Shown: positions 34,986 to 59,047 of the stretch, piece after piece
Layout of the letters: each line of letters begins with the position of its first letter
Numbering within the stretch: the stretch's first letter is position 1
The notes under the pieces: generated by a model
Databases searched by the model: none
What the model was told of the DNA's origin: nothing
What the model saw: the letters and a program-made list of their open reading frames with translations, nothing else
From: Eledone cirrhosa
Lineage: Eukaryota
Direction: 5' to 3'
Length of the DNA stretch: 64,000 nt
NCBI GenBank assembly: GCA_964016885.1
Contig: OZ024764.1
Location: forward strand, 4,836,001-4,900,000
Position numbers and translations under genes: made by a program

Positions 34986-35136
34986 CATATATATGTATAT
35001 ATATACATATATATATATAAAAGAAATAGGATTTCGCTTCAAGCATATCTTTATACAATATGTATAAATATTTCGTATCTCCAAAGAAATACGGTTTTAG
35101 GAAGCCTTAGCTCTGCAAACCCTGGGGAGCTAACGT

Positions 35137-35301
35137 CCTCTGGTGATGTCCAGCAGAAGCAAGGGGGACAACCGTCTATGCATTTCAGGCTTAACTGGCC
35201 ATCGTCAGGACAGTCCCTCCCACTGCTTGCGACTGCTGGCCAGTTAAGCGTGAAATGCATAGACGGTTGTCCCCCTTGCTTCTGCTGGACATCATCAGAG
35301 G
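35137..35301. repeat. 65-bp-arm inverted repeat; copies at 53843-54007 and 56600-56764
   Basis: 35137-35201 is reverse-complementary to 35237-35301 with 2 mismatches. Confidence 0.93.
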
Positions 35302-35417
35302 CCTTGAAACCTTAAGTCCCTTTTGTTCTGTGTATGAATAGATATAAATAATGTAATATATATATATGTATGTGTGTGTATCTATTTATATATTTAACTA
35401 TATTTTTCTCATTACAG

Positions 35418-35450
35418 GAAAACCTGGTTTGAAACACAAAAGAAAGGGAT
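35418..35450 (+). CDS. Micro-exon 1 (33 nt, phase 2-2): KTWFETQKKG
   Basis: TTTTTCTCATTACAG|...|GTAAGT; paralogous flanks are conserved while the interior is divergent. Confidence 0.75.
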
Positions 35451-36489
35451 GTAAGTGTTACCTTAACATACTGTCTAACCATTGTTTAATCTGCTCCTCC
35501 CACTACCTCTCCCTTTAAACACACACACACATATATACCCCTATATATATATGAATACACACACACACATATATATATATATATACACATATATATATAC
35601 ATATATACAAGCGAGAGACGGCTTGCTGACCAATCTCGCCTTCAGTGGGACAAAACCGTCCAACCCATGCTAGTATGGAAGATGGACTTTAAATGATGAT
35701 CATATATACACACTGACACATATATATACACATATATATACGCATATATTTATATATATATATGAGTTCAAATCCGCCGAGGTTAACTTTGCCTTTCATC
35801 TTTACGAGGTCGATAAAATAAAGTACCAGTGGTGCACTGGGGTAATCGCTGGCCTTCTGCCAAAAGTAGAAACTATATTTATACATATATATAACCAAAG
35901 ATTAATATGGTTCGTTGATTACTCAACGAATACAGTTTTACAATAGATTAGAAGCACTCAACAGTGAAAGTTTTCCTGGAGTTTTTAATATTATTCAAAA
36001 TATTAACAAATGAAAAATATTCTCATAATCAAAATATATACTTTATTATATATATTTCAAAGGTATATGACATACCTCTACGGTCTTGATTATTCAATTC
36101 CAGTATTGGCAGTGACTATATATTTATAGGCAAAATGAATAATGAAAGAGTTGCAAGCCGTTAAAACATATCTTTATAAAGCTCTTACATATGTTATATA
36201 TATATATATATATATATCATCATCATCATTTTATGTCCGCTTTTCCCTGCTTGCAAGGGTAGGGCTCTCACCACCGGCCATGTTTTTCGTGGTCTTCCTC
36301 TACTGCGTCTTCCTTCTACTGGGATTTTTTAGCACCTCTTTACCCAGCGGTCATCCTCGATGCACATCACTTGTCCATACCATCTCAGTCTTCTCTCCTG
36401 CACATCACAACTTATCCCCAGTTTCTCTATCAACTCATCTATGCTCTTGTCGTTCACGCACATTGACACACACACACACATATAAGGGA

Positions 36490-36780
36490 TAACAAAATAT
36501 CGTTATAGGTAATCCAGGTAGAGGTTGTGAATACTCTGTATTGTGGTTAGTCTTAGTCTACAGCGTTGTTTGACTCAACAAGAGGTTTCCGTAGGTGGCA
36601 AGTATTTGAGTTCTCTTGAATTCCTATGTAAGTTTATCTTGGAGTAATAATATTGAAAGCGTGAAGAATAACATGGTCAACAGTACAAAAAAAGGTTTTT
36701 ATTTACAGTATTAACAATTGTTTCACTGATTAAGTTGTCTAAAAATTGCTGAACACTTGAAGCTGTGCCACTCAATTTTA
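36490..36780 (-). mobile_element. Possible Penelope-like (GIY-YIG) remnant; copy at 56045-56335
   Basis: Degenerate minus-strand frame containing TYIG; weak support. Confidence 0.3.
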
Positions 36781-37284
36781 AATATGTTGTTAGCTTAACT
36801 AGATCATCAGAATATTTATATATATATATACTACAAATTATGTCCATAGAACCATTTGATAAGATATATACACCATTTCCTCTCCCAATTAGCATAATCA
36901 ACCACACAAAAAATCAATTAGACCAGGCTATAAGATTAAAAGGCACCTATGATAAAATAGTAGATAAATAAAAGACAGCATTTCAATAGCATGTGGAAAT
37001 CAATTAAATATATCGTCAACCATACACAATTAGGTATAAAATTAAAGTTAGAAGAAAAAATGCATATACACATACCAGGATTACGTTTCTACCCTTTAGG
37101 GTTTCGTTCGCATTTGGAAATATACTATCAAGGATAAATTCGATATAAATTCTATAAATTTATCAAGGATAAATTTATAGTATATTGCTCTGATTATTTA
37201 ATTTATTAATTCATCATTGAGCCACATCGTGAATGGTTGCCAAAAACATATATATCTATGACTTTGTCTAGTTTGTGTATATGT

Positions 37285-37385
37285 AAATCTTTATATTGAT
37301 TGTTCCTTATGTAGCACAGCCTTTCAGATTCCATCTTTGCGCACAAGTCTACAGCAAGCTGGTTGAAGAGTACTCTTGCACGGTG
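37285..37385 (-). mobile_element. Helitron RepHel fragment
   Basis: LFNQLAVDLCAKMESERLCYIRNNQ resembles the Helitron motif LFQQFxVDxYAKIESERLxYIRxNQ. Confidence 0.7.
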
Positions 37386-38902
37386 GAACAGCAACGTAGT
37401 AAGTAAGGCAATCAAAGATATGAAGATGGGGAAGGCAACCGGTCCATCGGGTATAGCTGCCGAGATGCTGAAGGCATCTGGGTCTGTAGGTCACACTATA
37501 ACCACACGTATTGTTAACCCGTTAATACTAGAAGGTGTCATACCAAAAGATTGGTGCAGTAGCATCATTGTCAACTGTTACAAAAGTAAAGGTGATGCAC
37601 TAGATAGAGGAAACTATAGAGGTATAAAGCTGATGGACCAGGTCATGAAAGTAACAGAAAGAGTTATAGCACAGTTGATTAGGGACCGGGTGAAACTAGA
37701 CGAGATGCAATTTGGGTTTGTACCAGGAAGAGGCACCACTGATGCCCTCTTCCTTGTCAGGCAGTTACAGGAAAAGTACCTAGCTAAAAGTAAGCCACTC
37801 TACCTGGCATTTGTTGACCTTGAGAAAGCCTTTGACAGAGTTCCACGTGCTGTAATCTGGTAGGCTCTTAGAAAACTAGGAGTAGATGAATAGCTTGTGA
37901 AAGTGGTACAAGCCATGTATAGGGGAGCAGTCAGCAAAGTTAGGATTAGCAATGAGTATAGCGAGGAATTTAGCGTACAGGTTGGGGTCCACCAGGGCTC
38001 TGTTCTTAGGCCCCTCCTGTTCATCATTGTCCTGCAGGCAATAACGGAGGACTTTAAGACCGGATGCCCATGGGAACTCCTGTATGCTGATGACCTCGCA
38101 CTTATAGCTGAATCTATGGTAGAACTAGAGAAGAAATTCCAAACTTGGAAGCAGGGACTAGAAAGAAAGGGTCTCAAAGTCAACATGACAAAGACTAAGG
38201 TCCTTGTAAGTAGACGAGAAAACAGAACCCAGATCCCCTCAGGGAAATGGCCTTGCTCAGTATGTAGGAAAGGTGTAGGTAGGAACTCCATTCTCTGCCC
38301 CAAATGCAAACAATGAGTACACAAGAGATGTAGCGGGATCTCAGGAAGCTTAATTAAGAATGTAGGCTTCACATGCAGCAGCTGTGCTGGGACAGCAAGC
38401 AGCAAACAGCCACAGGAAACAAGTACCACCAATCTCTGGGAGGGCTCTGTAGAAACAGTAGACAGCTTCTGCTACCTAGGTGACCGAATTAGCAGCGGAG
38501 GTGGGTGTTCAGAAAGTACAATAACTAGGGTAAGAATGGGATGGAAGAAGTTTAGGGAACTACTATCACTGCTAGCTGCAAAAGGCCTCTCCCTCAAAAT
38601 GAAAGGCAGACTGTATGATGCGTGTATCCGAACAGCGATGTTGCATGGTAGTGAGACCTGGGCGCTGAAGGTGGAAGACTTACGTAGATTAGAGAGAAAC
38701 GAAGCCTGCGTAACAGTAATATACGCGAACGACAAAGCATAAATGAATTGAGAGACTGAGCATAAGAGGAATCAAATGCTGTGTGCAGGAGAGGCGGTTG
38801 CGCTGGTATGGACATGTGATGCGTATGAAGGATGACAGCTGCATAAAAAGTTGCAGAGCACTAGAAGTCGATGGAAACCACGGTGTGGGGAGACCCAAGA
38901 TG
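37386..38902 (+). mobile_element. RTE LINE RT and C-terminal region with stops
   Basis: NYRGIKL, FVDLEKAFDRVP, GVHQGS, LLYADD, Cys-rich finger, MLHGSETW. Confidence 0.93.
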
Positions 38903-40343
38903 AGGAGAGAAAGAGTGTGAGAGAGAGAGAGTGAGAGAAAGAGAGGGAGTGAAAGAGAGAAATAGAGGGATTGAGAGAGATACGTTAAAACAATAACAGA
39001 AGGTCTGACTGGAGAATTTACTTTAGAATTTTAAGAGAAAAGGGGAAGGTTTCAGACTTCTGGAATTCCTTCACGAAAATGTCCTATATATCTGGAACAC
39101 AAACTTCAAAAAAATGAGACAACCACTTAATAACCTATAGATCATGTGAGCCCACCAGCTAGATAGATTTCATTGTTACCAGAAGACAGAGTGACTGTTA
39201 TAAACACAATGTCCCTCCCTAGTGAAGAATGCACCTCCCAAAATACCTTAGAAGACAACCTGGAAGAAAAGAGTAGAGATCAAAATCAAAAGGTCTTAAA
39301 GTCAATTTGGTAAAGACTAAAGTTCTAGTAAGTAGAAAGGAAAACTCGGCCCAGATCTCTTCAGGTAAACTGTCCTGCTCAGTGTGCAGAAAAGGAGTAG
39401 GTAGAAATTCCCATCCTATGTCCCATATATATATCCTATGTCCCATATATATATCCTATGTCCCATATATACTGTGAGAGGATTTAGGCATAAAAGGGAT
39501 TAGATTCAGTGTGCAGGAGTGCGATTGTTTTGGCATAGACATGTGATGTGTATGAAGGGTGACAGCTGTATAAAAAGGTGCCGAACAAACAAAGTTGACA
39601 GAAACCGTGGAGTGGGCAGGTCTAGGAAGACTTGGGATGAGGTAAGGAAAGCTGACTTTGTACAATTACACCTAGCTAAGGCAATGACACAGGATGGTGA
39701 CCTCTGGCGCTATGCACAATTATAGAGGACTACATCCACAATCCACCAGACATTTTCCCTACCAACACCCCACACAAGTTCCCAAACCTCACCATAAAGT
39801 GGTCCCGCTGCAGCCATGACAAACGTGCCCAGTCCACACTGTACAGTGGTCTTGTAGGTGTCCTGCCAAAAATCAATATTGGGCCTTAAAACCTTGAGTC
39901 CCTTTTGTTCTGTGTATGAACATAAATAATTGTTTCTACTTTTGGCACAAGGCCAGCAATTATCCAGTGCATTACTGGTACTTTATTTTATCGACCCCGT
40001 AAGGATGAAAGGCAAAGTTAACCTCGGCGGGATTTGAACTCAGATCATACAGGGAGGTAACTATGCTTCAAAGCATGGCGTCCGACCCTCTACCGATACT
40101 GCCAATCCACCGCCTGAACATAAATAAATAATTGTTTCTACTTTAGGCACAAGGCCAGCAATTACCTAGTACATTACTGGTACTTTATTTTATCGACTCC
40201 GTAAGGATGAAAGGCAAAGTCAACCTCGGAGGGATTTGAACTCAGATCGGAAAGGGACGTAACTAAATAAATAATGTAATATATATATATGTATGTGTGT
40301 GTGTATCTATTTATATATTTAACTATATTTTTTGTAATCACAG

Positions 40344-40385
40344 GACTGATACAAAGGAGAGTACCGCTCTAGAAAAGAATGAGGA
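40344..40385 (+). CDS. Micro-exon 2 (42 nt, phase 2-2): TDTKESTALEKNE
   Basis: TTTTTTGTAATCACAG|...|GTAAGT; only phase 2 is stop-free. Confidence 0.78.
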
Positions 40386-40600
40386 GTAAGTTTTAGTTTT
40401 ACATACTATCTAACCATTATTCTATCTGTTCCTTCCCGTCTCTCTCTCTCTTATATATATATTTATATATAGTAAGATGTATTATTGGTTGTGTAAAACG
40501 GTCCAATAAATTTTTGTTAGCAATATTAAGTCCTCCACGCTTTTGTATATCTCCAATTCCATTCAAGGGAACAGCTAGATGATGTAAAACGGAGTATTTG

Positions 40601-40702
40601 TATCAAAATGAAAATCCAAAGGCAAGGTAAAATTTCCAATCATTTTAATCAGGTCGTGATTGAAATGATTGGAAATCTTACCTTGCCTTTGGATTTTCAT
40701 TT

Positions 40703-40707
<5 letters not shown>
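40601..40707. repeat. ~50-bp-arm hairpin; copies at about 47206-47300 and 58945-59050
   Basis: TATCAAAATGAAAATCCAAAGGCAAGGTAA...TTACCTTGCCTTTGGATTTTCATTTTGATA. Confidence 0.9.
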
Positions 40708-40770
<63 letters not shown>

Positions 40771-40789
40771 GACTCCTCTTATAAACCAC

Positions 40790-41205
40790 GTTGGCTATTA
40801 TGACTCTCTCTTTCCCTCTCTATGTTGGCTATTATGACTCTCTCTCTCTCCCTCCCTCCCTCTCTATGTTGGCTATTATGACTCTCTCTCTCTCTATGTT
40901 GGCTATAATGACTCTCTCTCTCTATGTTGGCTATAATGACTCTCTCTCTCTATCTATGTTGGCTATTATGTCTCTCTCTCTCTATCTATGTATGTTGGCT
41001 ATTATGTCTCTCTCTCTCTATCTATGTTGGCTAATATGACTCTCTCTCTCTCTATGTTGGCTATTATGACTCTATCTCTCTCTATGTTGGCTATTATGTC
41101 TCTCTCTCTCTATCTATGTTGGCTATTATGACTCTCTCTCTCTATTTATGTTGGCTATTATGTCTCTCTCTCTCTATCTATGTTGGCTATTATGTCTCTC
41201 TCTGT
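40790..41205. repeat. Composite minisatellite ATGTTGGCTATTATGA(CT)n; copies at 47340-47525 and 59100-59360
   Basis: Read directly from the sequence. Confidence 0.9.
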
Positions 41206-41519
41206 TCAAGCTTTATGAAGTTAGTTGAACATCTTCAAAGTCCTCCCATATTCGCCTTGTCTAATATGCGTTCTTGTACCTGATTATTTCCCCCAAATCT
41301 CCTGGGATGTTATAAACCATGATGGCTACCTATCTCACAATTTCTCTCCTGCCCACCCCCTCACACCACCATAGTCTATTCGACCAATCAAACCTCAGAA
41401 ACATGTCCCCACCCATTACCAACCCCAACAAACTCTGCCATTACTACTACTTCTACTTTTCTTCTAGCCCTTACCAGCCCCAACAAACCCTGACATTATT
41501 ACTACTATTGTCCTTCTAG

Positions 41520-42948
41520 CCATGGGCTGAGGATAAATGGGGCTACCCCAAATTAATAAATGAATATGAATCCGCGAGTTACCAAGCACCCATGCAAAGC
41601 TTTAATTCAGAGACAGGAAGCATACACACCCCACTGCAAAAATTCACCCTTTCCCACGAGTGGTGGCAAATGCCCAAAACTCCGAGTTGGAACCATCAAT
41701 GTAAGCACAATGAAAGGAAGAGCAGGAGAAATTGTAGAGATGCTAGAGCGAAAGAAAATTGATGTATGCTGTGTGCAAGAGACTAGATGGAGAGCAGAGT
41801 CCGCTGGAGTCCTTGCAGGCAGAAGTCAGTGCTACCAATTTGTCTGGGTAGCAAATGACAACAGGATGGGAGGTGTAGCTATCCTATTAGCTGACAAATG
41901 GGTAGATAAGGTAATCTCAGTGAACAGGGTGAATGCAAGAATAATGAAACTTGGACAAGTCCTGAATAAAACAATTGCCACAATAATATCAGCTTACGCA
42001 CCCCAATTGGGGTTGCCAGCTGACTATAGCGGGGAATTTAGTTTAGAGGTCGGTGTCCACCAGGGCTCTGTTCTTAGCCCACTCCTGTTCGTTGAAGTAT
42101 TGCAAGCAATAATGGAGGTGATTATGACCGGATACCCATGGGAACTCCTATATGTGGATCATCTCACACTTATAGCCGAATCTATGGTGGAACTATACTT
42201 GCTCAGTATGTAGAAAAGGAGTAGGCTGGCTGCAAAAGGCTTTCCCCTCAAAATGAAAAGCAGACTGTATGATGTGGGTATACGAATAGCAATGTTACAT
42301 AGTAGTGAAACCTTGGCGCCGTCTGTGGAAGACTTGCATAGATTAGAAAGAAAGGAAGCCTGCATGCTCCGATGGATGTGTAATAGTAATATACGCGAAC
42401 GGCAAAGCATAAATGAATTGAGAGAGTGACTGAGCATAAGAGGAATGAAATGCTGTGTGCAGGAGAGGATGTTGCATTGGACATGTGATGCGTATGAAGG
42501 ATGACAGCTGTATAAAAAGGTGTAGAGCAGTAGAAGTCGATGGAAGCCGTAGAGTGGGGAGACCCAAGAAGAGCTGGGATGAGGTGATAAAAGCCGACCT
42601 TACCCAGTTGCACCTCTCAAAGGCGATGACACAGGACCGTCACCTCTGGCATCAAGCAGTAATACAGAAGACCTGACTCCCCAGGGCTACAAGCGGAAGT
42701 TGAAGCGTATGCTCCCACCCTCTCCGACTGTACAGTGGACGTATAGGCGCCACAGACAAAAAGCACCCAGGACTCACTGTAAATGAGGTTGGTGTTAGGA
42801 AGGGCATCCAGCTGTAGGAATCAAGCCAGAATCAGTTCCTGTATGAGCAAGACAAGGTCAGCTGAACAGACACTGCCCACAACAGGACAACCCGTCTAAC
42901 CCATGCTAGCGTGGAAGAATGGACGTAAAACAGTGATGATGAAGATGA
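41520..42948 (+). pseudogene. Internally deleted RTE (APE N-terminus fused to RT core, C-terminus and 3' UTR); copies at 47845-49095 and 59677-60927
   Basis: GTINVSTM, CVQETRW and SAYAPQ are joined directly to GVHQGSVLSPLLF. Confidence 0.88.
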
Positions 42949-42950
42949 TA

Positions 42951-45190
42951 TATCATATATGCCAGTGTACAAGTTGACATTTGGAGCCTAAAAATATCTC
43001 TCCAAAACCAGGGGTCGACTTGTCTGCTGAATATAGTATGTTACCTTTACCACTGAGGGGTAAACAGTGAAACTGCCTGCCTAACACTTGTTGTACACCA
43101 CTTACCATAACTCTAGCAACCCACCACATTTATTTCTACTGAATCTCATATTTGTTAAGTTTAATGTAGAGATTATAGTAATATCAATGTCTTGCTGTAG
43201 CTTATAGGGTAGGTTACTGTAGGGTAGGTTACTGTAGGGTAGGATACTGTCTGGTAGGTTACCATAGGGTAGGTTACTGTAGGGTAGGTTACTGTAGGGT
43301 AGGTTACTGTAGGGTAGGTTACCATAGGGTAGGATAGTGTCTGGTAGGTTACCATAGGGTAGGTTACGATAGGGCAGGATACTGTAGGGTAAGTTACTGG
43401 AGGGTAGGTTACCATAGGGTAGGTTACCGTAGGGTAGGTTACCATTGGGTAGGTTATTATAGGGTAGGTTACCACAGGGTAGGTGACCATAGAATAGGTT
43501 ACTGTAGGGTATTTTACCATAGGGTATGTTACCATAGGGTAGGTTACCTTATGGTAGGTTACCTTAAGGTAGGTTACCATAGGGTAAGTTACCATAGGGT
43601 AGGTTACCTTAGGGTAGGTGACCATAGTGTAGGCTACCATAGGTTAGGTTCTGTATGGTAGGTTAGGTTACTATAGGGTAGGTTACCATAGGGTAGGTTA
43701 CGATAGGGTTAGTTACCATAGGGTAGGTTACCATAGCGTAGGTTACTATTGGGTAGGTTACCATAGGGTAGGTTACTGTAGGTTAGGTTACGTAGGGTAG
43801 GTTACCATAGGGTAGGTTGCCATAGAGTAGGTTATTATAGGGTAGGTTACCATAAGGTAGATTACCTCAGGGTATGTTACCATATGGTAGGTTACCATAG
43901 GGTAGGTTACTGTAGGGTAGGTTACCATAGTGTAGGATACCTTAAATTAGGTTACCACAGGAAAAGTTACCATATGGTAGGTTACTGTAGGTTAGGTTAC
44001 CATAGGGTAGGTTATCATAGGTTAGGTTACCAAAGGGTAGGTTACTATAGGTTGTTACCATTGGGTAGGTTACTGTAGGGTAACATAGGTTACCATAGTG
44101 TAGGTTAATATAACATAGGTCACCATAGTGTAGGTTACCTTAGATTAGGTTACCACAGGATAGGTTACCATATGGTAGGTTACTGTAGGTTAGGTCACCA
44201 TAGGGTAGGTTACTATAGGGTAGGCTACTATAGGTTGTTACCATAGGGTAGGTTACTATAGGGTAGGCTACTATAGGTTGTTACCATAGGGTAGGTTACT
44301 ATAGGTTGTTACCATAGAGTAGGTTACAATATGGTTGGTTACCATAGTGTAGGTTACTATAACATTGGTTACCATAGTGTAGGTTACCTTAATTTAGGTT
44401 ACCATAGGTTAGGTTACCGTATCGTAGGTTACTGTAGGTTAGGTTACAATAGGGTAGGTTACTATAGGGTAGGCTACCAATGATAGGTTATGATGGGTTA
44501 GGTTCCATAGGGTAGGTTACCACAGTATATGTTACCATATGGTAGGTTAGGTTACCATAGGGTAGGTCACCATAGTGTAGGTTACTTTAGATTAGGTTAC
44601 CATAGGGTAGGTTACCACAGGATAAGTTACCATATGGTAGGTTACTATAACATAGGTTACCAAAGTGTAGGTTTCTATAGGTTGTTACCATAGGGTAGGT
44701 TACTGTAAGGTAGGTTACCATAGGGTAGGATACTGTAGGGTAGGTTACCAGAGGGTAGGTTATTATAGTATAGGTTACCGTAGGGTAGGTTTCCATGAAG
44801 TAGGTGACCATAGGGTAGGTTACTATAAGTTAGGTTACCATAGGGTAGGTTTCCATGAAGTAGGTTACCACAGGGTAGGTTAACATAAATTAGGTTACCT
44901 TAGGGTAGGTTACCATAAGTTAGGTTACCATACGGTAGGTTACCATAGGTTTGTTAAGGTTAGGCTAGGCTGGTCTACACGGTGAGTTAAAACTCACTTG
45001 TGACTGTAGTGTTTTAGAAGAAGTGTCTTAATCTTTCGTGCACCACTAAATTTTTTAACTATTTCCCCTGAAACTGCCTTATTTTGGGGAGGTTATCTTA
45101 TCAATCGAATAGCGTCCTAAATCTAAATTACACCTCAGAATTTTAGGGGCCACACTATGTACCGGATAGACTTGTACACCGGCATATATA
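42951..45190. mobile_element. Non-autonomous pogo/Tigger-like TIR element with an internal 15-bp array; copies at 49098-50952, 60930-62825 and partial 52198-52770
   Basis: Left end TATCATATATGCCAGTGTACAAGTT; right end GACTTGTACACCGGCATATAT(GGTA), complete in copies 2 and 3. Confidence 0.7.
43204..44965. repeat. 15-bp G-rich minisatellite (GGTAGGTTACCATAG)n; also 49330-50725, 52198-52620, 61163-62600
   Basis: Read directly; it produces the spurious VTYPM / VGYHR repeat ORFs. Confidence 0.97.
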
Positions 45191-45399
45191 TATATGCAAA
45201 GAGAGCGAGAGAAACAGCGGGAGTGAGAGAGATACATTAAAACAATAACAGAGGTCTGACTGGAGAATTTACTTTAGAATTTTAAGAGAAAAGAGGAAGG
45301 TTTCAGACTTCTGGAATTCCTTCACGAAAATGTCCTATTTATCTGTAATACAAACTTCAAAAAATGAGACAACCACTTAATAACATATAGATCATGTGA

Positions 45400-46400
45400 G
45401 CCCACCAGCTAGATAGATTTCCTTGTTACCAGAAGACAGAGTGACTGTTATAAACACAAAGTCCCTCCCTAGTGAAGAATGCACCTCCCAACATACCTTA
45501 GAAGACAACCTAGAAGAAAAGAGTATAGATCAAAATCAAAAGGTCTTAAAGTCAATTTGGTAAAGACTAAAGTTCTAGTAAGTAGAAAGGAAAACAGGGC
45601 CCAGATCTCTTCAGGTAAACTGTCCTGCTCAGTGGGCAGAAAAGGAGTAGGTAGAAATTCCATCCTATGTCCCATATAGAAATGATGGGTACACAAAAGA
45701 TGTTGTGGGATCTCAGGAAGGCTAACAAAGAACGTAGCTTCTACATGTGGCCAGTGAACAGGGGCAGGAAATATCAAGAGCTCTCGGGTTACAATCTCCT
45801 TCAAATACCCGAAAGTCTCTGTAGAGGTGGTAGATAGTTTCTGTTACCTAGGTGACTAAATCAGCAGTGGAGTAGGGTGGTCCCAAAACTCAGTAACAAG
45901 AGTGAGATTAGATTGGAGAAAGTGCAGGGATCTACTACTACTGCTAACAACAAAAAGTTTTTCCCTCAAAATGAAGGGCAGACTGTATGATGCAGGTATA
46001 CAAACAACAATGTTGCACAGCAGCGAGACCTGGGCACTGTGTGTAGAAGATCTGTAAAGATTGGAAAGAAATGAAGCCTCCATGCTTCAATGGATGTGCC
46101 ATAGTAATATATGCAAATGGCAAAACATAAATGTACTGCGAGAGAAATTAGGCATAAGAGGGGTTAGATGCAGTGTGCAGGAGAGGGATTGTTTTGGTAT
46201 AGACATGTGATGTGTATGAAGGGTGACAGCTGTATAAAAAGGTGCCGAACAAACAAAGTTGACAGAAACCGTGGAGTGGGCAGGTCTAGGAAGACTTGGG
46301 ATGAGGTAAGGAAAGCTGACTTTGCACAATTACACCTCGCTAAGGCAATGACACAGGAGGGTGACCTCTGGCGCTATGCACAATTATAGAGGACCTGCCC
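45400..46400 (+). mobile_element. Decayed RTE fragment; copies at 39150-39730, 51470-52198, 57704-58078, 63350-64000
   Basis: GLKVNLVKTKVL, GVGRNSILCP and GRSRKTWDEV remnants. Confidence 0.85.
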
Positions 46401-46957
46401 TCATAAATCCACGAGCTGAGGCATATATCTAGTATGTAACACCTTCCCCACCATCATCCCTCCCAAACACCTTCACCCCTATAACTACATCCACAATCCA
46501 CCAGACATTTTCCCTACCAACACCCCACACAAGTTCCCAAACCTCACCATAAAGTGGTCCTGCTGCAGCCATGACAAATGTGCCCAGTCCACACTGTACA
46601 GTGGTCTTGTAGGTGTCCTGCCAAAAATCAATATTGGGCCTTAAAACCTTGAGTCCCTTTTGTTCTGTGTATGAACATAAATAATTGTTTCTACTTTTGG
46701 CACAAGGCCAGCAATTAACCAGTGCATTACTGGTACTTTATTTTATCGACCCCGTAAGGATGAAAGGCAAAGTTAACCTCGGCGGGATTTGAACTCAGAT
46801 CATACAGGGAGGTAACTATGCTTCAAAGCATGGCGTCCGACTCTCTACCGATACTGCCAATCCACCGCCTGAACATAAATAAATAATGTAATATATATAT
46901 ATATGTATGTGTGTGTGTATCTATTTATATATTTAACTATATTTTTTGTAATCACAG

Positions 46958-46999
46958 GACTGTTCCACTGCAGAGTTCCGCTAGAGGAAACAGTGACGA
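46958..46999 (+). CDS. Micro-exon 3 (42 nt, phase 2-2): TVPLQSSARGNSD
   Basis: TTTTTTGTAATCACAG|...|GTAAGT; paralog of 40344-40385. Confidence 0.78.
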
Positions 47000-49900
47000 G
47001 TAAGTTTTAGTTTTACACACTATCTAACCATTATTCTATCTGTTCCTTCCCGTCTCTCTCTCTCTTTATATATATATATTTATATATACTAAGGTGTATT
47101 ATTGGTTGTGTAAAACGGTCCAATAAATTTTTGTTAGCAATATTAAGTTCTCCACGCTTTTGTATATCTCCAATTCCATTCAAGGGAACAGCTAGATGAT
47201 GTAAAAAAATCCGAAGGCAAGGTAAAATTTCCAATCATTTTAATCATGTCGTGATTAAAATGATTGGAAATCTTACCTTCCCTTCGGATTTTCATTTTGA
47301 TATATATATATATATATGACTCTGTCTCTTATAAACCACGTTGGCTATTATGACACTCTCTCCAACATAGAGAGCTATGTTGGCGATTATGACTCTCTCT
47401 CTCCCTCTCTATGTTGGCTATTATGACTCTCTCTCTCTCTATGTTGGCTATTATGACTCTCTCTCTCTCTATGTTGGCTATAATGACTCTCTCTCTCTAT
47501 CTATGTTGGCTATTATGTCTCTCTCTGTTCAAGGTTTATGAAGTTAGATGAACATCTTCAAAGTCCTCCCATATTCGCCTTGTCTAATATGCGTTCTTGT
47601 ACCTGATTATTTCCCCCAAATCTCCTGGGATGTTATAAACCATGATGGCTACCTATCTCACAATTTCTCTCCTGCCCACCCCCTCACACCACCATAGTCT
47701 ATTCGACCAATCAAACCTCAGAAACATGTCCCCCACCCATTAAAAACCCCAACAAACTCTGCCATTACTACTACTTCTACTTTTCTTCTAGCCCTTACCA
47801 GCCCCAACAAACCCTGACATTATTACTACTATTGTCCTTCTAGCTATGGGCTGAGGATAAATGGGGCTACCCCAAATTAATAAATGAATATGAATCCGCG
47901 AGTTACCAAGCACCCATGCAAAGCTTTAATTCAGAGACAGGAAGCATACACACCCCACTGCAAAAATTCACCCTTTCCCACGAGTGGTGGCAAATGCCCA
48001 AAACTCCGAGTTGGAACCATCAATGTAAGCACAATGAAAGGAAGAGCAGGAGAAATTGTAGAGATGCTAGAGCGAAAGAAAATTGATGTATGCTGTGTGC
48101 AAGAGACTAGATGGAGAGCAGAGTCCGCTGGAGTCCTTGCAGGCAGAAGTCAGTGCTACCAATTTGTCTGGGTAGCAAATGACAACAGGATGGGAGGTGT
48201 AGCTATCCTATTAGCTGACAAATGGGTAGATAAGGTAATCTCAGTGAACAGGGTGAATGCAAGAATAATGAAACTTGGACTAGTCCTGAATAAAACAATT
48301 GCCACAATAATATCAGCTTACGCACCCCAATTGGGGTTGCCAGCTGACTATAGCGGGGAATTTAGTTTAGAGGTCGGTGTCCACCAGGGCTCTGTTCTTA
48401 GCCCACTCCTGTTCGTTAAAGTATTGCAAGCAATAATGGAGGTGATTATGACCGGATGCCCATGGGAACTCCTATATGCGGATCATCTCACACTTATAGC
48501 CGAATCTATGGTGGAACTATACTTGCTCAGTATGTAGGAAAGGAGTAGGCTGGCTGCAAAAGGTTTTCTACTCAAAATGAAAAGCAGACTGTATGATGTG
48601 GGTATACGAATAGCAATGTTACATAGTAGTGAAACCTGGGCGCCGTCTGTGGAAGACTTGCATAGATTAGAAAGAAACGAAGCCTGCATGCTCCGATGGA
48701 TGTGTAATAGTAATATACGCGAACGGCAAAGCATAAATGAATTGAGAGAGTGACTGAGCATAAGAGGAATGAAATGCTGTGTGCAGGAGAGGATGTTGCA
48801 TTGGACATGTGATGCGTATGAAGGATGACAGCTGTATAAAAAGGTGTAGAGCAGTAGAAGTCGATGGAAGCCGTGGAGTGGGGAGACCCAAGAAGAGCTG
48901 GGATGAGGTGATAAAAGCCGGACTCACTGTAAATGAGGTTGGTGTTAGGAAGGGCATCCAGCTGTAGGAATCAAGCCAGAATCAGTTCCTGTATGAGCAA
49001 GACAAGGTCAGCTGAACAGACACTGCCCACAACAGGACAACCCGTCTAACCCATGCTAGCGTGGAAGAATGGACGTAAAACAGTGATGAAGATGATATAT
49101 CATATATGCTAGTGTACTATTTGACATTTGGAGCCTAAAAATATCTCTCCAAAACCAGGGGTTGACTTGTCTGCTGAATATAGTATGTTACCTTTACCAC
49201 TGAGGGGTAAACAGTGAAACTGCCTGCCTAACACTTGTTGTACACCACTTACCATAACTCTAGCAACCCACCACATTTATTTCTACTGAATCTCATATTT
49301 GTTAAGTTTAACGTAGAGATTATAGTAATATCAATGTCTTGCTGTAGCTTATAGGGTAGGTTACTGTAGGGTAGGTTACTGTAGGGTAGGATACTGTCTG
49401 GTAGGTTACCATAGGGTAGGTTACTATGGGGTAGGTTACTGTAGGTAGGTTACCATAGGGTAGGTTACTGTAGTGTAGGTTACTGTAGGGTAGGTTACTA
49501 TAGGGTAGGTTACTGTAGGGTAGATTACTCTAGGCTAGGTTACCATAGGGTAGGTTACTGTAGTGTAGGTTACCATAGGGTAGGTTACCAGAGTAGGTGA
49601 CCATAGGGTATGTTATTATAGGGTAGGTAACTGTAGGTTAGGTTACTATAGGGTAGGTTACCATAGTGTAGGTTACCTTATGGTAGGTTACCTTATGGTA
49701 AGTTACTATAGGGTAGGTTACCATAGTGTAGGTTACCTTATGGTAGGTTACCTTATGGTAAGTTGCTATAGGGTAGGTTACCATAGGGTAGGTTACCTTA
49801 CGGTAGGTAAGAATAGGGTAGGTTACCATAGGTTAGGTTACTGTAGGGTAGGTTACCATAAGGTAGGTTACTGTAGGGTAGGTTAACATAGGATAGGTTA

Positions 49901-52789
49901 TGTAGGGTAGGTTACCGTAGGTTAGGTTACTGTAGGTAGGTTACCATAGGGTAGTTTACCGTAGGTTAGGTTACTGTAGGGTAGGTTAACATAGGGTATG
50001 TTAGCATAGGGTTGGTTACCATAGGTTAAGTTCCTATAGGTTGTTACCATATGGTAGGTTACTGTAGGGTAGGTTGCTATAGGGTAGGTTATCGTAGAGT
50101 AGGTTACCATAAGGTAGGTTACCGTAGGGTAGGGTATCATAGGATAGGTTACCATAAGGCAGGTTACCATAGAGTAGGTTACCTTAGGGTAGTTTACTAT
50201 AAGATAGGTTACCATAGTGTAGCTTACCATAGGGTAGGTTGTTACTATAGGCAAGGTTACTATAGGGTGGGTTACCATAGGGTAGTTTATAATATGGTTG
50301 GTTAACATAGTGTAGGTTACTATAACATAGGTTACCATAGTGTAGGATACCTTAGATTAGGTTACCATAGGGTAGGTTACTACAGGATAGGTTACCATAT
50401 GGTAGGTTACCACAGGATAGGTTACCATAGGTTAGGTTAGCAATGGGTAGGTTACTATAGGTTGTTACCATAAGGTAGGTTACTGTATGGTGGGTTACCA
50501 TAGGGTAGGGTACCATAAAGTAGGTTATTATAGTGTAGGTTACAATAGGGTAGGTTTCCTTAGGATAGGTAACCATAGGGTAGGTTACTATGGGGTAAGT
50601 TACCATGAAGTAGGTTACCATAGGGTAGGTTAACATAAGCTAGGTTACCTCAGGGTAGGTTACCATACCATAGGGTAGGTTACCATACCATAAAGTAGGT
50701 TACCATAGGTTTGTTAAGGTTAGGCTAGGCTGGTCTACTCGGTGAGTTAAAACTCACTTGTGACTGTAGTGTTTTAGAAAAAGTGTCTCAATCTTTCGTG
50801 CGCCACTAAATTTTTTAACTATTTCCCCTGAAACTGCCTTATTTTTGGGGGTCATCTTATCAATCGAATAGCGTCCTAAATCTAAATTATACTTCAGAAT
50901 TTTAGGGGCCGACCTATGTACCGGATAGACTTGTACACCGGCATATATGGTATATATATATATGCATGGAGGCACATGGCTTAGTGGTTAGAGCATTGGT
51001 CATGCAATCGAAAGGTTGTGAGTTCAATTCTCAGACCGGGTGATGTGTTGGTTCCTTGAGCAAGACACTTTATTTCACATTGCTCCAGTTTACTCAGCTG
51101 TAGAAATGAGATGATAGGGACTGGGGTCCCTATCATTCCACTGCAAAGTGGTCGTGGAGGTGCCATGGCAAAAAAAGCACCTAGCACTCACTGTAAATGA
51201 GGTTGGTGACAGGAAGGGCATACAGCTGTAGAAATCAAGCCAGAATCAGTTCCCGTCCCACCCTTGCAAGCAGGGAAAAGTGGACGTAAAATGAAATGAT
51301 GAAAGAGAGATAGAGAGAAAGAGAGGGAGTGAGAGAGATACATTAAAACAATAACAGAAGGTCTGACTGGAGAATTTACTTTAGAATTCCTTCACGGAAA
51401 TGTCTTATTTATCTGTAACACAAACTTCAAAAAACAAGACAACCACTTAATAACCGATAGATCAAGTGAGCCCTCCAGCTAGATAGATTTCATTGTTACC
51501 AGAAGACAGAGTGACTGTTATAAACACAAAGTCCTTCCCTAGTGAAGAATGCACCTCCCAACATACCTTAGAATACAACCTGGAAGAAAAGAGTATAGAT
51601 CAAAATCAAAAGGTCTTAAAGTCAATTTGGTAAAGACTAAAGTTCTAGTAAGTAGAAAGGAAAACAGGGCCCAGATCTCTTCAGGTAAACTGTCCTGCTC
51701 AGTGGGCAGAAAAGGAGTAGGTAGAAATTCCATCCTATGTCCCATATAGAAATGATGGGTACACAAAAGATGTTGTGGGATCTCAGGAAGGCTAACAAAG
51801 AACGTAGCTTCTACATGTGGCCAGTGAACAGGGGCAGGAAATATCAAGAGCTCTCGAGTTACAATCTCCTTCAAATGCCCAGAAGTCTCTGCAGAGGTGG
51901 TAGATAGTTTCTGTTACTTAGGTGACTAAATCAGCAGTGGAGGAGGGTGGTCCAAAAACTCAGTAACAAGAGTGAGATTAGATTGGAGAAAGTGCAGGGA
52001 TCTACTACTACTGCTAACTACAAAACATTTTTCCATCAAAATGAAGGGCAGACTGTATGATGCAGGTATACAAACAACAATGTTGCACAGCAGCGAGACC
52101 TGGGCACTGTGTGTAGAAGATCTGTAAAGATTGGAAAGAAATGAAACCTCCATGCTTCAATGGATGTGCCATAGTAATATATGCAAATGGCAAAACATAG
52201 GTTACCATTGGGTAGGTTACTGTAGGGTAGGGTACCATAGGGTGGGTTACCATAGGGTAGGTTACTGTATGGTAGGTTACATTTCGTTAGGTTACTGTAG
52301 GGTAGGTTACCATAGGGTAGGTTACCATAGGGTGGGTTACCATAGGGTAGGTTACTGTAGGGTAGGTTACCATAGGGTAGTTATGTAGGGTAGGTTACCA
52401 TAGTGTAGGTTACTGTAGGGTAGGTTACCATAGAGTAGGATACTGTAGGGTAGGTTACCATAGGTTAGGTCACTGTAGGGTAGGTTACCATAGGGTAGGT
52501 TATTATAGGGTAGGTTACCATAGGTTAGGTTACTATAGGGTATGTTACCATAGGGTAGGTTACTATAAGGTAGGTTACCATACCATAGGTTAGGTTACCA
52601 TATGTTTGTTAAGGTTAGGCTAGGCTGGTTTACTCGGTGAGTTAAAACTCACTTGCGACTGTAGTGTTTTAGAAGAAGTGTCTTAATCTTTAGTGCGCCA
52701 CTAAATTTTTTAACTATTTCCCCTGAAACTGCCTTATTTTTTGGGTGTCGTCTTATGAATCGAATAGTGTCGTATAGGACTATCTGGCA

Positions 52790-53712
52790 TGTTTTCTATG
52801 GCTGGATGCCCTTCCTAACACCAACCACGTTTACAGTGTGGGGACTGGGAGGTTTTCACCATGTTAACTACACGGCCAATTTACAGCGTGGACTGTGTGT
52901 TTTATTGTCATGACACCTACACAACCTCATTTATTTAGGACTGGATGTTGTGTGACCAACATAATTTTACAGAGATGGGGGTGGGAGTAGTGGGGTGGGG
53001 GCGTATATTTGGTTAAGAGGTGCCTACTGACTGTAGGTTTCGCTTTGTACTTAGGCAAGGGTGGTCTTCTGTATTACTGCGTAGCGCCAAAGATCTCGGT
53101 TCAGTGACATTGTCTTGGAGAGGTGTAAGTGTGTGAGATCGGAATTTATCAATTCGTCCCAGGGTTTTCTGGGTCTGCCTACTCCGTGGCTACCATTTAT
53201 TTTGATCGCCCTGCACTTTTTTATACAGCTGTCGTCTTTCTTGCGCATCACGTGACCATACCAACGTAGTCTTCTCTCGAGTAAACAACATCTGATCCCT
53301 CTTATTCCTAATTTCTCACTTAGTTCATTTATGCTTTGCCGTTCACGTATATTACTATTACACATCCAGCAGAGCATGCAAACTTCATTCCTCTCCAGTC
53401 TGCGTATATCCTCTGCACACAATGCCCAAGTCTCACTGCCATGTAACATTGTTGTTCGTATGCAGGCATCATACAGCCTGCCTTTCATTTTTAGAGAGAA
53501 CCCTTTAGCGGCCAATCGTACAATGAAAAGAGCGTCTGTGATACTTTTACCTGACACAAACCCAAACTGCATTTCATCTAGATCAATTCTCTCTCTGATT
53601 AGTTGCGCTATTACTTTTTCTGTGACCCTCATGAACTGGTCAATTAATTTAATGCCTCTATAGTTTCCCCTATCTAGGGCATCTCCTTTACCCTTGTAGC
53701 AGTTAATGATGA
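52790..53712 (-). mobile_element. Internally deleted RTE with 3' UTR
   Basis: ORF 53051..53764 carries RTE motifs. Confidence 0.88.
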
Positions 53713-54123
53713 TGATATATATATAAAAGAAATAGGATTTCGCTTCAAGCATATCTTTATACAATATGTATAAATATTTTGTATCTCCAAAGAAATACGG
53801 TTTTAGGAAGCCTTAGCTCTGCAAACCCTGGGGGGCTAACGTCCTCTGGTGATGTCCAGCAGAAGCAAAGGGGACAACCGTCTATGCATTTCAGGCTTAA
53901 CTGGCCATCGTCAGGACAGTCCCTCCCACTGCTTGCGACTGCTGGCCAGTTAAGCGTGAAATGCATAGATGGTTGTCCCCCTTGCTTCTGCTGGACATCA
54001 CCAGAGGCCTTGAAACCCTAAGTCCCTTTTGTTCTGTGTATGAACAGAAATAAATAATGTAATATATATATATGTATGTGTGTGTATCTATTTATATATT
54101 TAACTATATTTTTCTCATTACAG

Positions 54124-54153
54124 GAACACCACTAATTTCTCCAAAACAGTCAC
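54124..54153 (+). CDS. Micro-exon 4 (30 nt, phase 2-2): NTTNFSKTV
   Basis: TTTTTCTCATTACAG|...|GTAAGT; one codon shorter than its paralogs; two N-X-S/T sequons. Confidence 0.75.
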
Positions 54154-54714
54154 GTAAGTGTTACCTTAACATACTGTCTAACCATTGTTTAATCTGCTCC
54201 TCCCTCTACCTCTCCCTTTATACACACACACACATATATACCCCTATATATATATGTATACACACACACACACAAATATATACACATATATACATATATA
54301 TATACACACATATATATACATATATACAAGCGAGACACGGCCTGCTGACCAATCTCGCCTTAAGTGGGACAAAACCGTCCAACCCATGCTAGCATGGAAG
54401 ATGGACTTTAAATGATGATGATATATACACACTGACACATATATATATACATATATATATACACATATATATACGCATATATTTATATATATATATGAGT
54501 TCAAGTCCGCCGAGGTTAACTTTGCCTTTCATCTTTACGAGGTCGATAAAATAAAGTACCAGTGGTGTACTGGGGTAATCGCTGGCCTTGTGCCAAAAGT
54601 AGAAACTATAATTATATATATATAACCAAAGATTAATATAGTTCGTTGATTACTCAACGAATACAGTTGTACAATAGATTAGAAGAACTCAACAGTGAAA
54701 GTTTTCCTGGACTT

Positions 54715-54986
54715 TTTAATATTAACAAATGAAAAATATTCTCATAATCAAAATATATACTTTATTATATACATTTCAAAGGTATATGACATACCTCTAC
54801 GGTCTTGATTCTTCAATTCCAGTATTGCAGTCACTGCCAATACTGGAATTGAAGAATCAAGACGGTAGCGCTATGTCATAATCATATATTTTGTCTGATG
54901 AGGACGTACTGAAAAAACAACAATATATATAATATAGTATATATTTTGATTATGCGAATATTTTTCATTTGTTAACATTTTGAATA

Positions 54987-54990
<4 letters not shown>
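54715..54990. repeat. Imperfect palindrome (Penelope-like terminus) containing CTGATGAG..GAAA at about 54895-54915
   Basis: TATGACATA..TCTTGATTCTTCAATTCCAGTATTG / CAATACTGGAATTGAAGAATCAAGA..TATGTCATA plus outer AT-rich arms. Confidence 0.75.
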
Positions 54991-55056
<66 letters not shown>

Positions 55057-55122
55057 AGGTAAAATTAATAATGAAAGAGTTGCAAGCCTTTAAAACATAT
55101 CTTTATAAAGCTCTTACATATG

Positions 55123-55165
<43 letters not shown>

Positions 55166-55999
55166 TATATATATATATATATATATATCATCATTATCAT
55201 TTTATGTCCGCTTTTCCCTGCTTGGAAGGGTTGGGCTCTCACCACCACTGGCCATGTTTTTCGTGGTCTTCCTTTTACTGGGATTTTTTAGCACCTCTTT
55301 ACCCAACGGTCATCCTCGATGCGCATCACTTGTCCATACCATCTGTGTTCTCTCCTGCACACCACAACTTATCCCCAGTTTCTCTCTCAACTCATCTATG
55401 GTCTTGTCGTTCACGCACATTGACACACACACACACACACATATATATATTAATTCTATTGACTGATTAATAGCTCTTGTTAATTTTAAAACCATTCTGT
55501 TGAGAGCTTAATTCGTTTTGTGATATTCTGCAATTTTGCAATAACACACATACTGAATGCATCCGCCAAAACTAAGGGTTGCCCCCCCTCCCCCCCCTGT
55601 GAAGCCCCACGTGGGTTTTGATAACGGTCAGTCCTTGGCTTAGCACTGAACTAAAAGCCTGTTGAGAAAGTGACTTCCTTGTTCGATCATCATACCAAAA
55701 GCTTAACATTATTTGTCTAAGTAGACAGTACTTGATTTAGGAGTTGCAGAAACCCAATACTGGATATTACCAACCTTCCAGGGGTCCGGGTATAATTTTC
55801 CATCATATTTTATTTGTTTTACTCGAATTACTTGGTCGTGTCAATGGCTGTGCGGATAATTGTTTAACCATCGTCTCAGTGTGTTTGGCCTTTTAACTTA
55901 TGTTGTTGCTCTAGTTCACTAGCTTCTATGGAGCGCTTGCCACACATCTCGGAAGTTGTTTTTCGTTAATTTCCAATAGCAGAAATGCAATTCTCGCTA

Positions 56000-56037
<38 letters not shown>

Positions 56038-56878
56038 GTATAAGGGATAACAAAATATCATTATAGGTAATCCAGGTAGAAGTTGTGAATACTCTGTATT
56101 GTGGTTAGTCTTAGTCTACGGCGTTGTTTGACTCAACAAGAGGTTTCCGTAGGTGGCAAGTATTTGAGTTCTCTTGAATTTCTATGTAAGTTTATCTTGG
56201 AGTAATAATATTGAAAGCGTGAAGAATAACATGGTCAACAGTACAAAAGAAGGTTTTTATTTACAGTATTAACAATTGTTTCACTGATTAAGTTGTCTAA
56301 AAATCGCTGAAAACTTAAAGCTGTGCCACTCAATCTACTATATATATTGGAAGTGGTCGGACGTTGTATATTTAAGTAAATAAGTAGGTGTAGTCGGATA
56401 AACGTCGAAACGGCTTGGTAGAATGCAGCGAAAATTTACACAGTTATGCAGAATTGTAGCAGTTAATGATGATATATATGTAAAAGAAATAGGATTTCGC
56501 TTCAAGCATATCTTTATACAATATGTATAAATATTTTGTATCTCCAAAGAAATACGGTTTTAGGAAGCCTTAGCTCTGCAAACCCTGGGGGGCTAACGTC
56601 CTCTGGTGATGTCCAGCAGAAGCAAGGGGGACAACCGTCTATGCATTTCAGGCTTAACTGACCATCGTCTGGACAGTCCCTCCCACTGCTTGCGACTGCT
56701 GGCCAGTTAAGCATGAAATGCATAGACGGTTGTCCCCCTTGCTTCTGCTGGACATCACCAGAGGCCTTGAAACCCTAAGTCCCTTTTGCTCTGTGTATGA
56801 ACAGAAATAAATAATGTAATATATATATATGTATGTGTGTATCTATTTATATATTTAACTATATTTTTCTCATTACAG

Positions 56879-56911
56879 CACCAAACCATCTACCAAGTAC
56901 GAGAATATTAT
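56879..56911 (+). CDS. Micro-exon 5 (33 nt, phase 2-2): TKPSTKYENI
   Basis: TTTTTCTCATTACAG|...|GTAAGT; paralog of 35418-35450. Confidence 0.75.
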
Positions 56912-58691
56912 GTAAGTGTTACCTTAACAAACTGTCTAACCATTGTTTAATCTGCTCCTTCCTCTACCTCTCCCTTTATACACACACACACATATATACC
57001 CCTATATATATATGTATACACACACACACACAAATATATACACATATATACATATATATATACACACATATATATACATATATACAAGCGAGACACGGCC
57101 TGCTGACCAATCTCGTCTTAAGTGGGACAAAACCGTCCAACCCATGCTAGCATGGAAGATGGACTTTAAATGATGATGATATATATACACTGACACATAT
57201 ATATACATATATACAAATATATATACGCATATATCTATATATATATATATGAGTTCAAGTCCGCCGAGGTGAACTTTGCCTTTCATCTTTACGAGGTCGA
57301 TAAAATAAAGTACCAGTGGTGCACTGGGGTAATCGCTGGCCTTGTGCCAAAAGTAGAAACTATATTTATATATATAAAACCAAAGATTAATATGGTTCGT
57401 TGATTACTCAACGAATACAGTTTTACAATAGATTAGAAGCACTCAACAGTGAAATTTTCCTGGAGTTTTTAATATTATTCAAAATATTAACAAATGAAAA
57501 ATATTCTCATAATCAAAATATATACTTTATTATATACATTTCAAAGGTATATGACATACCTCTACGGTCTTGATTATTCAATTCCACTATTGGCAGTGAC
57601 TATATATTTATAGGCAAAATGAATAATGAAAGAGTTGCAAGCCGTTAAAACATATCTTTATAAAGCTCTTACATATGTTATATATATATATATCATCATC
57701 ATCAGCAGCGAGACCTGGGCACTGTGTGTAGAAGATCTGTAAAGATTGGAAAGAAATGAGCCTCCATGCTTCAATGGATGTGCCATAGTAATATATGCAA
57801 ATGGCAAAACATAAATGTACTGTGAGAGGATTTAGGCATAAGAGGGATTAGATGCAGTGTGCAGGAGTGGGATTGTTTTGGTATAGACATGTGATGTGTA
57901 TGAAGGGTGACAGCTGTATAAAAAGGTGCCAAACGCACAAGGGTGACAGAGGCCGTGGAGTGGGCAGGTCTAGGAAGACTTGGGATGAGGTAAGGAAAGC
58001 TGATTTTGCACAATTACACCTAGCTAAGGCAATGACACAGGATGGTGACCTCTGGCGCTATGCACAATTATAGAGGACTACATCCACAATCCACCAGACA
58101 TTTTCCCTACCAACACCCCACACAAGTTCCCAAACCTCACCATAAAGTGGTCCCGCTGCAGCCATGACAAACGTGTCCAGTCCACACTGTACAGTGGTCT
58201 TGTAGGTGTCTTGCCAAAAATCAATATTGGGCCTTAAAACCTTGAGTCCCTTTTGTTCTGTGTATGAACATAAATAATTGTTTCTACTTTTGGCACAAGG
58301 CCAGCAATTATCCAGTGCATTACTGGTACTTTATTTTATCGACCCCGTAAGGATGAAAGGCAAAGTTAACCTCGGCGGGATTTGAACTCAGATCATACAG
58401 GGAGGTAACTATGCTTCAAAGCAAGGCGTCCGACTCTCTACCGATACTGCCAATCCACCGCCTGAACATAAATAAATAATTGGTTCTACTTTAGGCACAA
58501 GGCCAGCAATTACCTAGTACATTACTGGTACTTTATTTTATCGACTCCGTAAGGATGAAAGGCAAAGTCAACCTCGGAGGGATTTGAACTCAGATCGGAA
58601 AGGGACGTAACTAAATAAATAATGTAGTATATATATATGTATTTGTGTGTGTATCTATTTATATATTTAAGTATATTTTTTGTAATCACAG

Positions 58692-58733
58692 GACTGATAC
58701 AGAGGAGGGTACCGCTCCAGAAAATAATGACGA
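58692..58733 (+). CDS. Micro-exon 6 (42 nt, phase 2-2): TDTEEGTAPENND
   Basis: TTTTTTGTAATCACAG|...|GTAAGT; paralog of 40344-40385. Confidence 0.78.
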
Positions 58734-59047
58734 GTAAGTTTTACATACTATCTAACCATTATTCTATCTGTTCCTTCCCGTCTCTCTCTCTCTTTATATA
58801 TATATATATATATATAGTAAGGTGTATTACTGGCTGTGTAAAACGGTCCAATAAATTTTTGTTAGCAATATTAAGTCTCCACGCTTTTGTATATCTCCAA
58901 TTCCATTTAAGGGAACAGCTAGATGATGTAAAACGGAGTATTTCTATCAAAATGAAAATCCGAAGGCAAGGTAAAATTTCCAATCATTTTAATCACATCG
59001 TGATTAAAATGATTGGAAATCTTACCTTCCTTTGGATTTTCATTTTG

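Follow-up and report, generated by a model that had tools for sequence, protein, structure and literature searches.

The 64,000-nucleotide stretch of Eledone cirrhosa DNA analysed here (the window; positions 4,836,001 to 4,900,000 of contig OZ024764.1, assembly GCA_964016885.1, so that its first letter is C25:4836001 in the coordinates used below) carries six micro-exons that belong to a large tandem array, which is followed in the same frame by exons for a protein resembling the M13 (neprilysin-like) peptidases. The array and these downstream exons are together referred to as gene A. The search for further units covered the window and the region 4.90-5.50 Mb of C25, in a genome of 3.0 Gb. An earlier note on this DNA had described the six micro-exons, and its account of them holds: the segments are 33, 42, 42, 30, 33 and 42 nt long, each has a CAG acceptor and a GTAAGT donor, phase 2 is open in all six, phase 0 is interrupted by stops in five and phase 1 by a stop in exon 2, and the flanks are shared as claimed. 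Its guess that more exons follow beyond the window edge was borne out, as the array runs 500 kb further, and the flank search of the assembly that it had put forward as a check counted 107 units, all on the plus strand.

Searching with both flanks placed the 107 homologous units over 528 kb, from C25:4871418 to 5399532, in a single orientation; 96 are paired canonical units, two have a variant flank, four a different acceptor and five an altered donor. Canonical splice sites are present in 102 units. The five altered-donor copies, four of which keep a weak GT while one has none, were excluded from the exon counts, and those translated are also in frame. Intact exons (n=102) measure 27, 30, 33, 36, 42 or 78 nt, all multiples of three, and comprise 55 distinct sequences encoding 49 distinct peptides. 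Among these 55 exons there is no stop in phase 2, compared with 41 interrupted in phase 0 and 22 in phase 1; a rough estimate of the neutral chance of zero stops across the ~192 changes is 0.002. Spliced in order, the 102 exons, all symmetric and separated by introns of 0.1-12.8 kb, would yield 4,011 nt and 1,336 aa, and any subset of them stays in frame, with no possible junction codon forming a stop. When the array region was scanned for generic acceptor/donor pairs, 44 segments emerged on the plus strand, every one an open multiple of three, and none on the minus strand. Across the whole genome, exact matches to the 33-nt donor-flank pattern number 89 in forward orientation, all in this array, and six in reverse, all in an inverted paralogue (gene B); a control pattern gave no match. 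Because the donor flank is found here and in this one inverted paralogue only, the array is neither a chance assembly nor a dispersed repeat, and a dispersed transposon was rejected as the source of the exon.

The chain encoded by the array is rich in Thr (14%) and Ser (9%), has a net charge of -90 and contains no hydrophobic stretch (maximum 0.56). It holds 37 N-glycosylation sequons and 22 YxxPhi motifs; in the 49 distinct peptides the latter occur 16 times, as against 5.9 after shuffling, in copies that share descent and are not independent. The exons form a short class, which mostly ends basic-basic-hydrophobic, and a 42-nt class, which ends acidic. Protein searches with single exons found true relatives among none of 43 and none of two scored candidates; a full HMMER scan gave two matches, both to unrelated repeat proteins, and the best value in an atlas search, 0.88, was at noise level, all of these being weak negatives given queries of 35-59 aa. 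Within the array, five 78-nt exons (C25:4952553, 4968128, 4985029, 5066424 and 5306123) look as if two short exons had fused in frame in the genome, leaving an acceptor remnant between them, and three 57-nt copies with a weak donor resemble these fusions. At four sites, C25:5100139-5100328 and three others like it, an in-frame 33-nt exon comes ~110 nt after a 42-nt exon, and the usual acceptor flank of the 33-nt exon has been swapped for repeat-derived sequence.

The M13-like body of gene A consists of 21 exons encoding 647 aa (~1,940 nt) with no stop, in frame with the array, so that most of the coding length (4,011 nt in 102 exons) resides in small symmetric exons. Its sole hydrophobic window is residues 1-24. 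Single exons match Pfam Peptidase_M13 (PF01431; E 4e-4, 0.013 and 4e-5) and M13_N (PF05649; 0.01) with the order of the profile kept, the 14 PDB matches include neprilysin, ECE-1, Zmp1 and PepO, and in a second search seven of seven were neprilysin/ECE-1. VNAFY and ENIAD motifs are present in gene A and in its paralogues B and C, and the His-to-Glu spacing is 52, compared with 58 listed for neprilysin. The ectodomain carries eight sequons, and its paired cysteines are presumably those of a typical luminal M13 fold. M13 proteins are described as mostly type II, with a cytoplasmic N-terminus and HExxH, GENIAD and VNAFY motifs (PMC2259306), and ECE-1 as having a small cytoplasmic N-terminus (PMC2567069). 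Judged by family and charge, gene A probably encodes an M13-like protein of type II orientation with a single N-terminal helix. As the family is type II and the array comes before the sole membrane helix, the array should encode cytoplasmic sequence, in which the sequons would be unused. This position speaks against the mucin-like stalk or secreted product envisaged in the earlier note; a signal-peptide exon was looked for upstream and not found, the 5' end of the gene not being fixed. A genome search with PF01431 missed the C25 gene family. Further M13 loci were seen in a cluster at C24:7.51-7.82 Mb and at three places on C3. Between C25:5458398 and 5617368 a 46-bp satellite, a tandem copy of the next M13 exon's acceptor and first bases, offers thousands of decoy acceptors; it would amount to ~3,450 copies if continuous (~159 kb presumed; both ends read, middle 110 kb unread), and B has 128.

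The helix and zinc-motif exons occur in four copies, A, B, C and D, all on C25. Homologous juxtamembrane exons precede the helix exon once in C, twice in D, six times in B and as 107 units in A, and the ancestral exon is thus a juxtamembrane exon, which supports the single ancestral exon that the earlier note had proposed as the origin of the symmetric phase-2 micro-exons. In C this 42-nt homologous exon lies 1.2 kb before the helix exon, and in both C and D the helix-facing side of the ancestral exon bears basic residues. Gene B is an inverted copy of locus A, 97-99% identical to it; the 5' breakpoint argues against B being a mis-joined allele of A, though 3' homology continues past the 20 kb examined. 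At C25:7243578-7314421 B internally duplicates the region matching window positions 22821-40919, which gives it two copies of each of its first two micro-exons. Gene A has the zinc motif HKIFH and gene C HQIFH, and both B and D have HEIFH (one assembly). The catalytic codon is AAA in A, CAA in C and GAA in B, and hence two different changes have struck one base. In the C-terminal CxxW the Cys is missing from A, B and C. Active neprilysins are defined by four motifs in the account given by PMC8223033, and under that rule the loss of the catalytic Glu and of the CxxW Cys classes gene A as neprilysin-like and predicts it to be inactive. The model of C used here omits one 42-nt exon through an extraction loss, and D is represented by five exons only.

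Divergence is concentrated in the exons. Short-class exons (29 distinct) differ at 43% of sites, as against ~2% in their flanks, which include 230 nt of intronic sequence distant from the splice site; for 42-nt exons (20) the figures are 32% and 1-3.5%, and a free-gap comparison of 406 pairs gave 34% in exons versus 1.5% in flanks. For the 42-nt class, counting along a minimum spanning tree gave 56.5 non-synonymous (Nd) and 6.5 synonymous (Sd) differences, a ratio of per-site proportions (pN/pS) of 2.4 (p 0.009). Units share modules of 1.1-1.7 kb, and higher-order blocks are repeated three or four times. The array contains 53 full-length copies of a 165-nt hairpin, of which 46 precede short-class exons, and the hairpin variants (23 sequences) occur as mosaic combinations. 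The high silent divergence within near-identical flanks, together with these mosaics, points to homogenisation of the flanks as well as to selection. The pattern is clear, and its cause would be flanks homogenised while exon content was selected apart. The features are collected in Table 1.

Table 1. Features of gene A and its upstream region (window positions, or C25 positions where so prefixed)
Feature	Position	Strand	Remarks
Micro-exon 1	35418..35450	+	33 nt, short class; first unit of the array; nearest to the juxtamembrane exon of paralogues C and D
Micro-exon 2	40344..40385	+	42-nt class
Micro-exon 3	46958..46999	+	42-nt class
Micro-exon 4	54124..54153	+	30 nt, short class
Micro-exon 5	56879..56911	+	33 nt, short class; YxxPhi motif at end
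Micro-exon 6	58692..58733	+	42-nt class
Share of gene A in the window	35418..64000	+	remainder outside window
Membrane-helix exon	C25:5413283-5413395	+	phase 2; only hydrophobic helix; 13.8 kb past last micro-exon
20 further M13 exons	stop at C25:5629521	+	AG/GT at all internal sites
Region shared with inverted paralogue B	4935..35417	+	~97-99% identity; homology starts near 4935
Candidate 5' exon, weak	33211..33268	+	strong donor; last two bases and micro-exon 1 would form a start codon; inside high-copy repeat
Duplicated module, ~1.1 kb	35007..36117	+	hairpin, acceptor flank, exon, donor flank; common to short-class units
165-nt near-perfect inverted repeat, resembling a miniature inverted-repeat transposable element	35137..35301	.	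~115 nt upstream of acceptor; z = -21
Other window copies of the 165-nt inverted repeat	53843-54007; 56600-56764		

Four sequencing runs of one study (X1-X4) contain words of a body exon; none is recorded as RNA, X4 being RNA-like, and they were compared at the helix exon and the following exon only. In X4 the exons are covered, the unique part of the intron is uncovered and the helix exon is joined to the next exon at the predicted GT..AG, whereas X1-X3 cover the intron and the joint was not seen in them. X4 shows splicing of an A/B-type gene, not of A itself. The X4 contig starts 11 letters (unread) inside the exon upstream of the helix exon and ends at 6342; exactly 11 letters at the end of the last exon are common to A and B, and 6342 is precisely where C and D merge. 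As both contig ends fall where branching of the assembly graph predicts, they hint, from one sample and in contigs that drop rare forms, that the helix exon receives micro-exons of the last-exon type and that other types are not often joined to it directly. At L052:3285-3417 X1 and X3, which are DNA-like, contain the helix exon in another form, which lacks 3 nt at each of two places, has five other differences and matches neither A nor B; this suggests a further allele or paralogue.

Upstream of the array, the promoter and first exon common to A and B should lie in the region that the two loci share (Table 1). That homology begins just downstream of a young insertion resembling a long interspersed nuclear element (433-4275), which has a 523-aa reverse-transcriptase frame and interrupts a 79-bp minisatellite. 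A CpG-rich segment at 19700-19880, also copied in B, contains three CCAAT boxes as well as a GTAAGT donor on the minus strand near 19715, and a neighbouring or divergent transcript may have its promoter and first exon here. Mariner-like transposase remnants lie at 25386-26398 and 32204-32762, the former alone having a Pfam match. The repeat L075:2547-3029 has 2,106 candidate copies, with ~100% identity in the 40 scored, and is a very young element.

We propose, with a probability of about 0.6, that the window contains the 5' end of a 760-kb M13-like gene in which an amplified micro-exon array specifies a variable cytoplasmic tail in front of a pseudo-peptidase ectodomain. The anatomy in this proposal is very probable; its functional part, in which the tail is a docking or sorting platform, is tentative and drawn by analogy. 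Sequence comparison shows that one small phase-2 juxtamembrane exon was duplicated along with ~1 kb of flank, and that unequal crossing-over then amplified exon and flank to 107 units. Recent duplication and gene conversion would keep the flanks alike, and selection would drive exon content apart, with pathogen, gamete or neuronal recognition as candidate drivers. Splicing most likely links the exons into a chain that closes with the last exon and tolerates skipping. The product would be an acidic, Ser/Thr-rich cytoplasmic tail of up to ~1,340 aa with repeated YxxPhi motifs, and the ectodomain, lacking the catalytic Glu, may be a non-cleaving, peptide-binding pseudo-peptidase. The tail could then serve as a variable docking and sorting platform that controls location or signalling, comparable with the alternative N-terminal tails of ECE-1. 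A peptide-binding, non-cleaving role has been suggested for Nepl15 (PMC8223033).

It should be emphasized that several observations weigh against this proposal. The candidate first exon of A sits in a repeat with 1,045 candidates and the start codon is unfixed, while the first-exon candidate of C and D lies in a repeat with 156 candidates, of which A has the upstream part only. The type II topology rests on prediction, and the sequon count (20 versus 13.7 after shuffling, p 0.03) fits a luminal location better. The four exons that match PF01431 or PF05649 encode only 22-35 aa, and each is under the curated cut-off. Gene A has lost a conserved Cys, which is retained in B, C and D, and is split by a 163-kb intron, 5.9 kb in B, the fetched ends of which are satellite copies of the next acceptor. 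The X4 contig, like X1-X3, carries B alleles at sites where A and B differ, and no read joining two micro-exons was seen in X1-X4, aligned at the helix exon only. Positive selection is formally shown for the 42-nt class only: in the short class pN/pS is 0.97 and silent sites are as diverged as others, in alignments that are uncertain, and in the body the ratio is ~1 (1.07 for A-B, 1.25 for A-C).

In layout gene A resembles SmPoMuc and the Schistosoma micro-exon genes (MEGs), and in protein type the neprilysin-like (Nepl) proteins and ECE-1; its membership is in the M13-like group only. The analogy that the earlier note had drawn with the MEGs is apt as far as layout goes: as described in PMC4350168, coding sequence lies mostly in small symmetric exons, introns are transposon-rich and dN/dS is high, and VAL-6 is an earlier case in which a MEG-like part is attached to an ordinary domain. 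In that account, however, MEG products all have signal peptides, the genes are flatworm-restricted and skipping is documented, whereas in gene A skipping is a possibility. SmPoMuc (PMC2576457) is likewise reported to have a tiny exon in a ~1-kb repeat with microsatellites, homogenised introns, distinct exons and copy numbers that vary between paralogues, but its exon is 27 bp long, in at most ~20 repeats and few types, and encodes a mucin, in contrast with 107 units, 55 exon sequences and a peptidase-like body. Drosophila Nepl proteins such as Gone early, as presented in PMC2259306, PMC8223033 and PMC11266112, share the type II layout, VNAFY/ENIAD and the two zinc histidines, and also form a lineage-specific cluster of paralogues in which catalytic residues have been lost; the known M13 and Nepl members covered there have a small cytoplasmic N-terminus, most Nepl being secreted, and not up to ~1,340 aa of exon-encoded repeats before the helix. 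ECE-1 isoforms a-d, according to PMC2567069, are M13 proteins in which the alternative cytoplasmic N-termini both set location and exert non-catalytic effects, but they comprise four short tails made from alternative promoters on an active enzyme, as opposed to ~100 duplicated exons on a predicted dead one. The octopus gene LOC115219258, split in gene models into obimac0010569 and obimac0010570, is reported to join an octopus-only N-terminal part to a C-terminal M13 part and to mark a class of optic-lobe neurons (10.1101/2022.06.11.495763, PMC9815951); compared with gene A by description only, it comes with no mention of an exon array in the available text of these reports.

Dscam possesses dozens of diversified tandem duplicates of one exon, which encode extracellular Ig segments and are chosen one at a time. 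The array shares the tandem diversified duplicates, but its tail is predicted to be cytoplasmic and a docking complement was not found in the flanking introns. It could nevertheless be argued that gene A is a Dscam- or MEG-like isoform generator in which one or few of the ~100 exons enter each mRNA, giving many tails, with palindrome pairing looping out the exons between. Every subset is in frame with no stop at a junction, splice signals are near-identical among copies, one dead-donor and four weak-donor copies are tolerated, the 53 hairpins are in place, the ends of short-class exons look juxtamembrane-like and diversified exons make most sense if sampled. Against sampling, X4 runs 11 letters before branching, whereas frequent joining of 42-nt or YKKF-type exons would branch at 0-3 (A may be silent there, and contigs drop rare forms); a search of the flanking introns for one docking site complementary to the module found none, each hairpin is stably self-folding, and 42-nt exons end acidic. 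We regard such a generator as unlikely, though credible. Unlikely too, and speculative, is its boldest form, a diversity generator of Dscam scale inside the cell, in which ~100 hypervariable micro-exons are sampled combinatorially, perhaps via hairpin-hairpin pairing, to place thousands of tyrosine-motif tails on a dead neprilysin receptor, for cell identity, immunity or reproduction; such a gene would possibly be kin of the optic-lobe M13 gene.

Gene A might also be recently disabled or barely expressed, its array a by-product of repeat-driven unequal crossing-over while B, C and D do the work. The loss of both the catalytic Glu and the conserved Cys, the very long satellite intron with its decoy acceptors, the first exon that was not found, a body pN/pS near 1 and the B alleles of the only spliced contig all agree with decay. 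Against decay, the 102 micro-exons and 21 body exons are free of stops and frameshifts, and all length changes are multiples of three; divergence is ~20-fold faster in the exons than in the flanks of the same units, amino-acid changes are in excess in the 42-nt class, changes in the B lineage are as numerous as those in the A lineage, and C lost the same Glu via another change. Disablement is, on this evidence, improbable. Very improbable is an extracellular or secreted, Ser/Thr-rich, N-glycosylated mucin-like region, reached through an unfound signal-peptide exon or a transcript ending before the helix exon. The composition and the 37 sequons, mildly above shuffled expectation, would suit it, as would a 5' end that is not fixed, and in the available text of the octopus atlas (10.1101/2022.06.11.495763) no long read links the N-terminal and M13 parts of the split gene, a possible relative of gene A. 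In C and D, however, the ancestral exon immediately precedes the helix and has basic residues on the side facing it, X4 shows an exon from upstream spliced onto the helix exon, the chain lacks a hydrophobic stretch, and it is the ectodomain that has eight sequons and, presumably, the paired cysteines of a luminal M13 fold.

The array of gene A is real and unusual. Searches of the literature, with bioRxiv supplements and Zenodo files outside their reach, found no micro-exon array on an M13 gene, and the combination of exon array and M13 body is apparently new as far as that literature extends. Two-thirds of the protein of gene A is missed by open reading frame finders. Most known cases of hypervariability by exon repeats concern parasite and recognition proteins that are secreted or extracellular, and here it is predicted for a cytoplasmic tail. 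The array is about five times larger than that of SmPoMuc, and in the family of four genes to which it belongs the catalytic Glu has been lost on two separate occasions. The series of one, two, six and 107 copies thus offers natural material for the change from enzyme to a receptor-like protein and for the divergence of exons within near-identical flanks.

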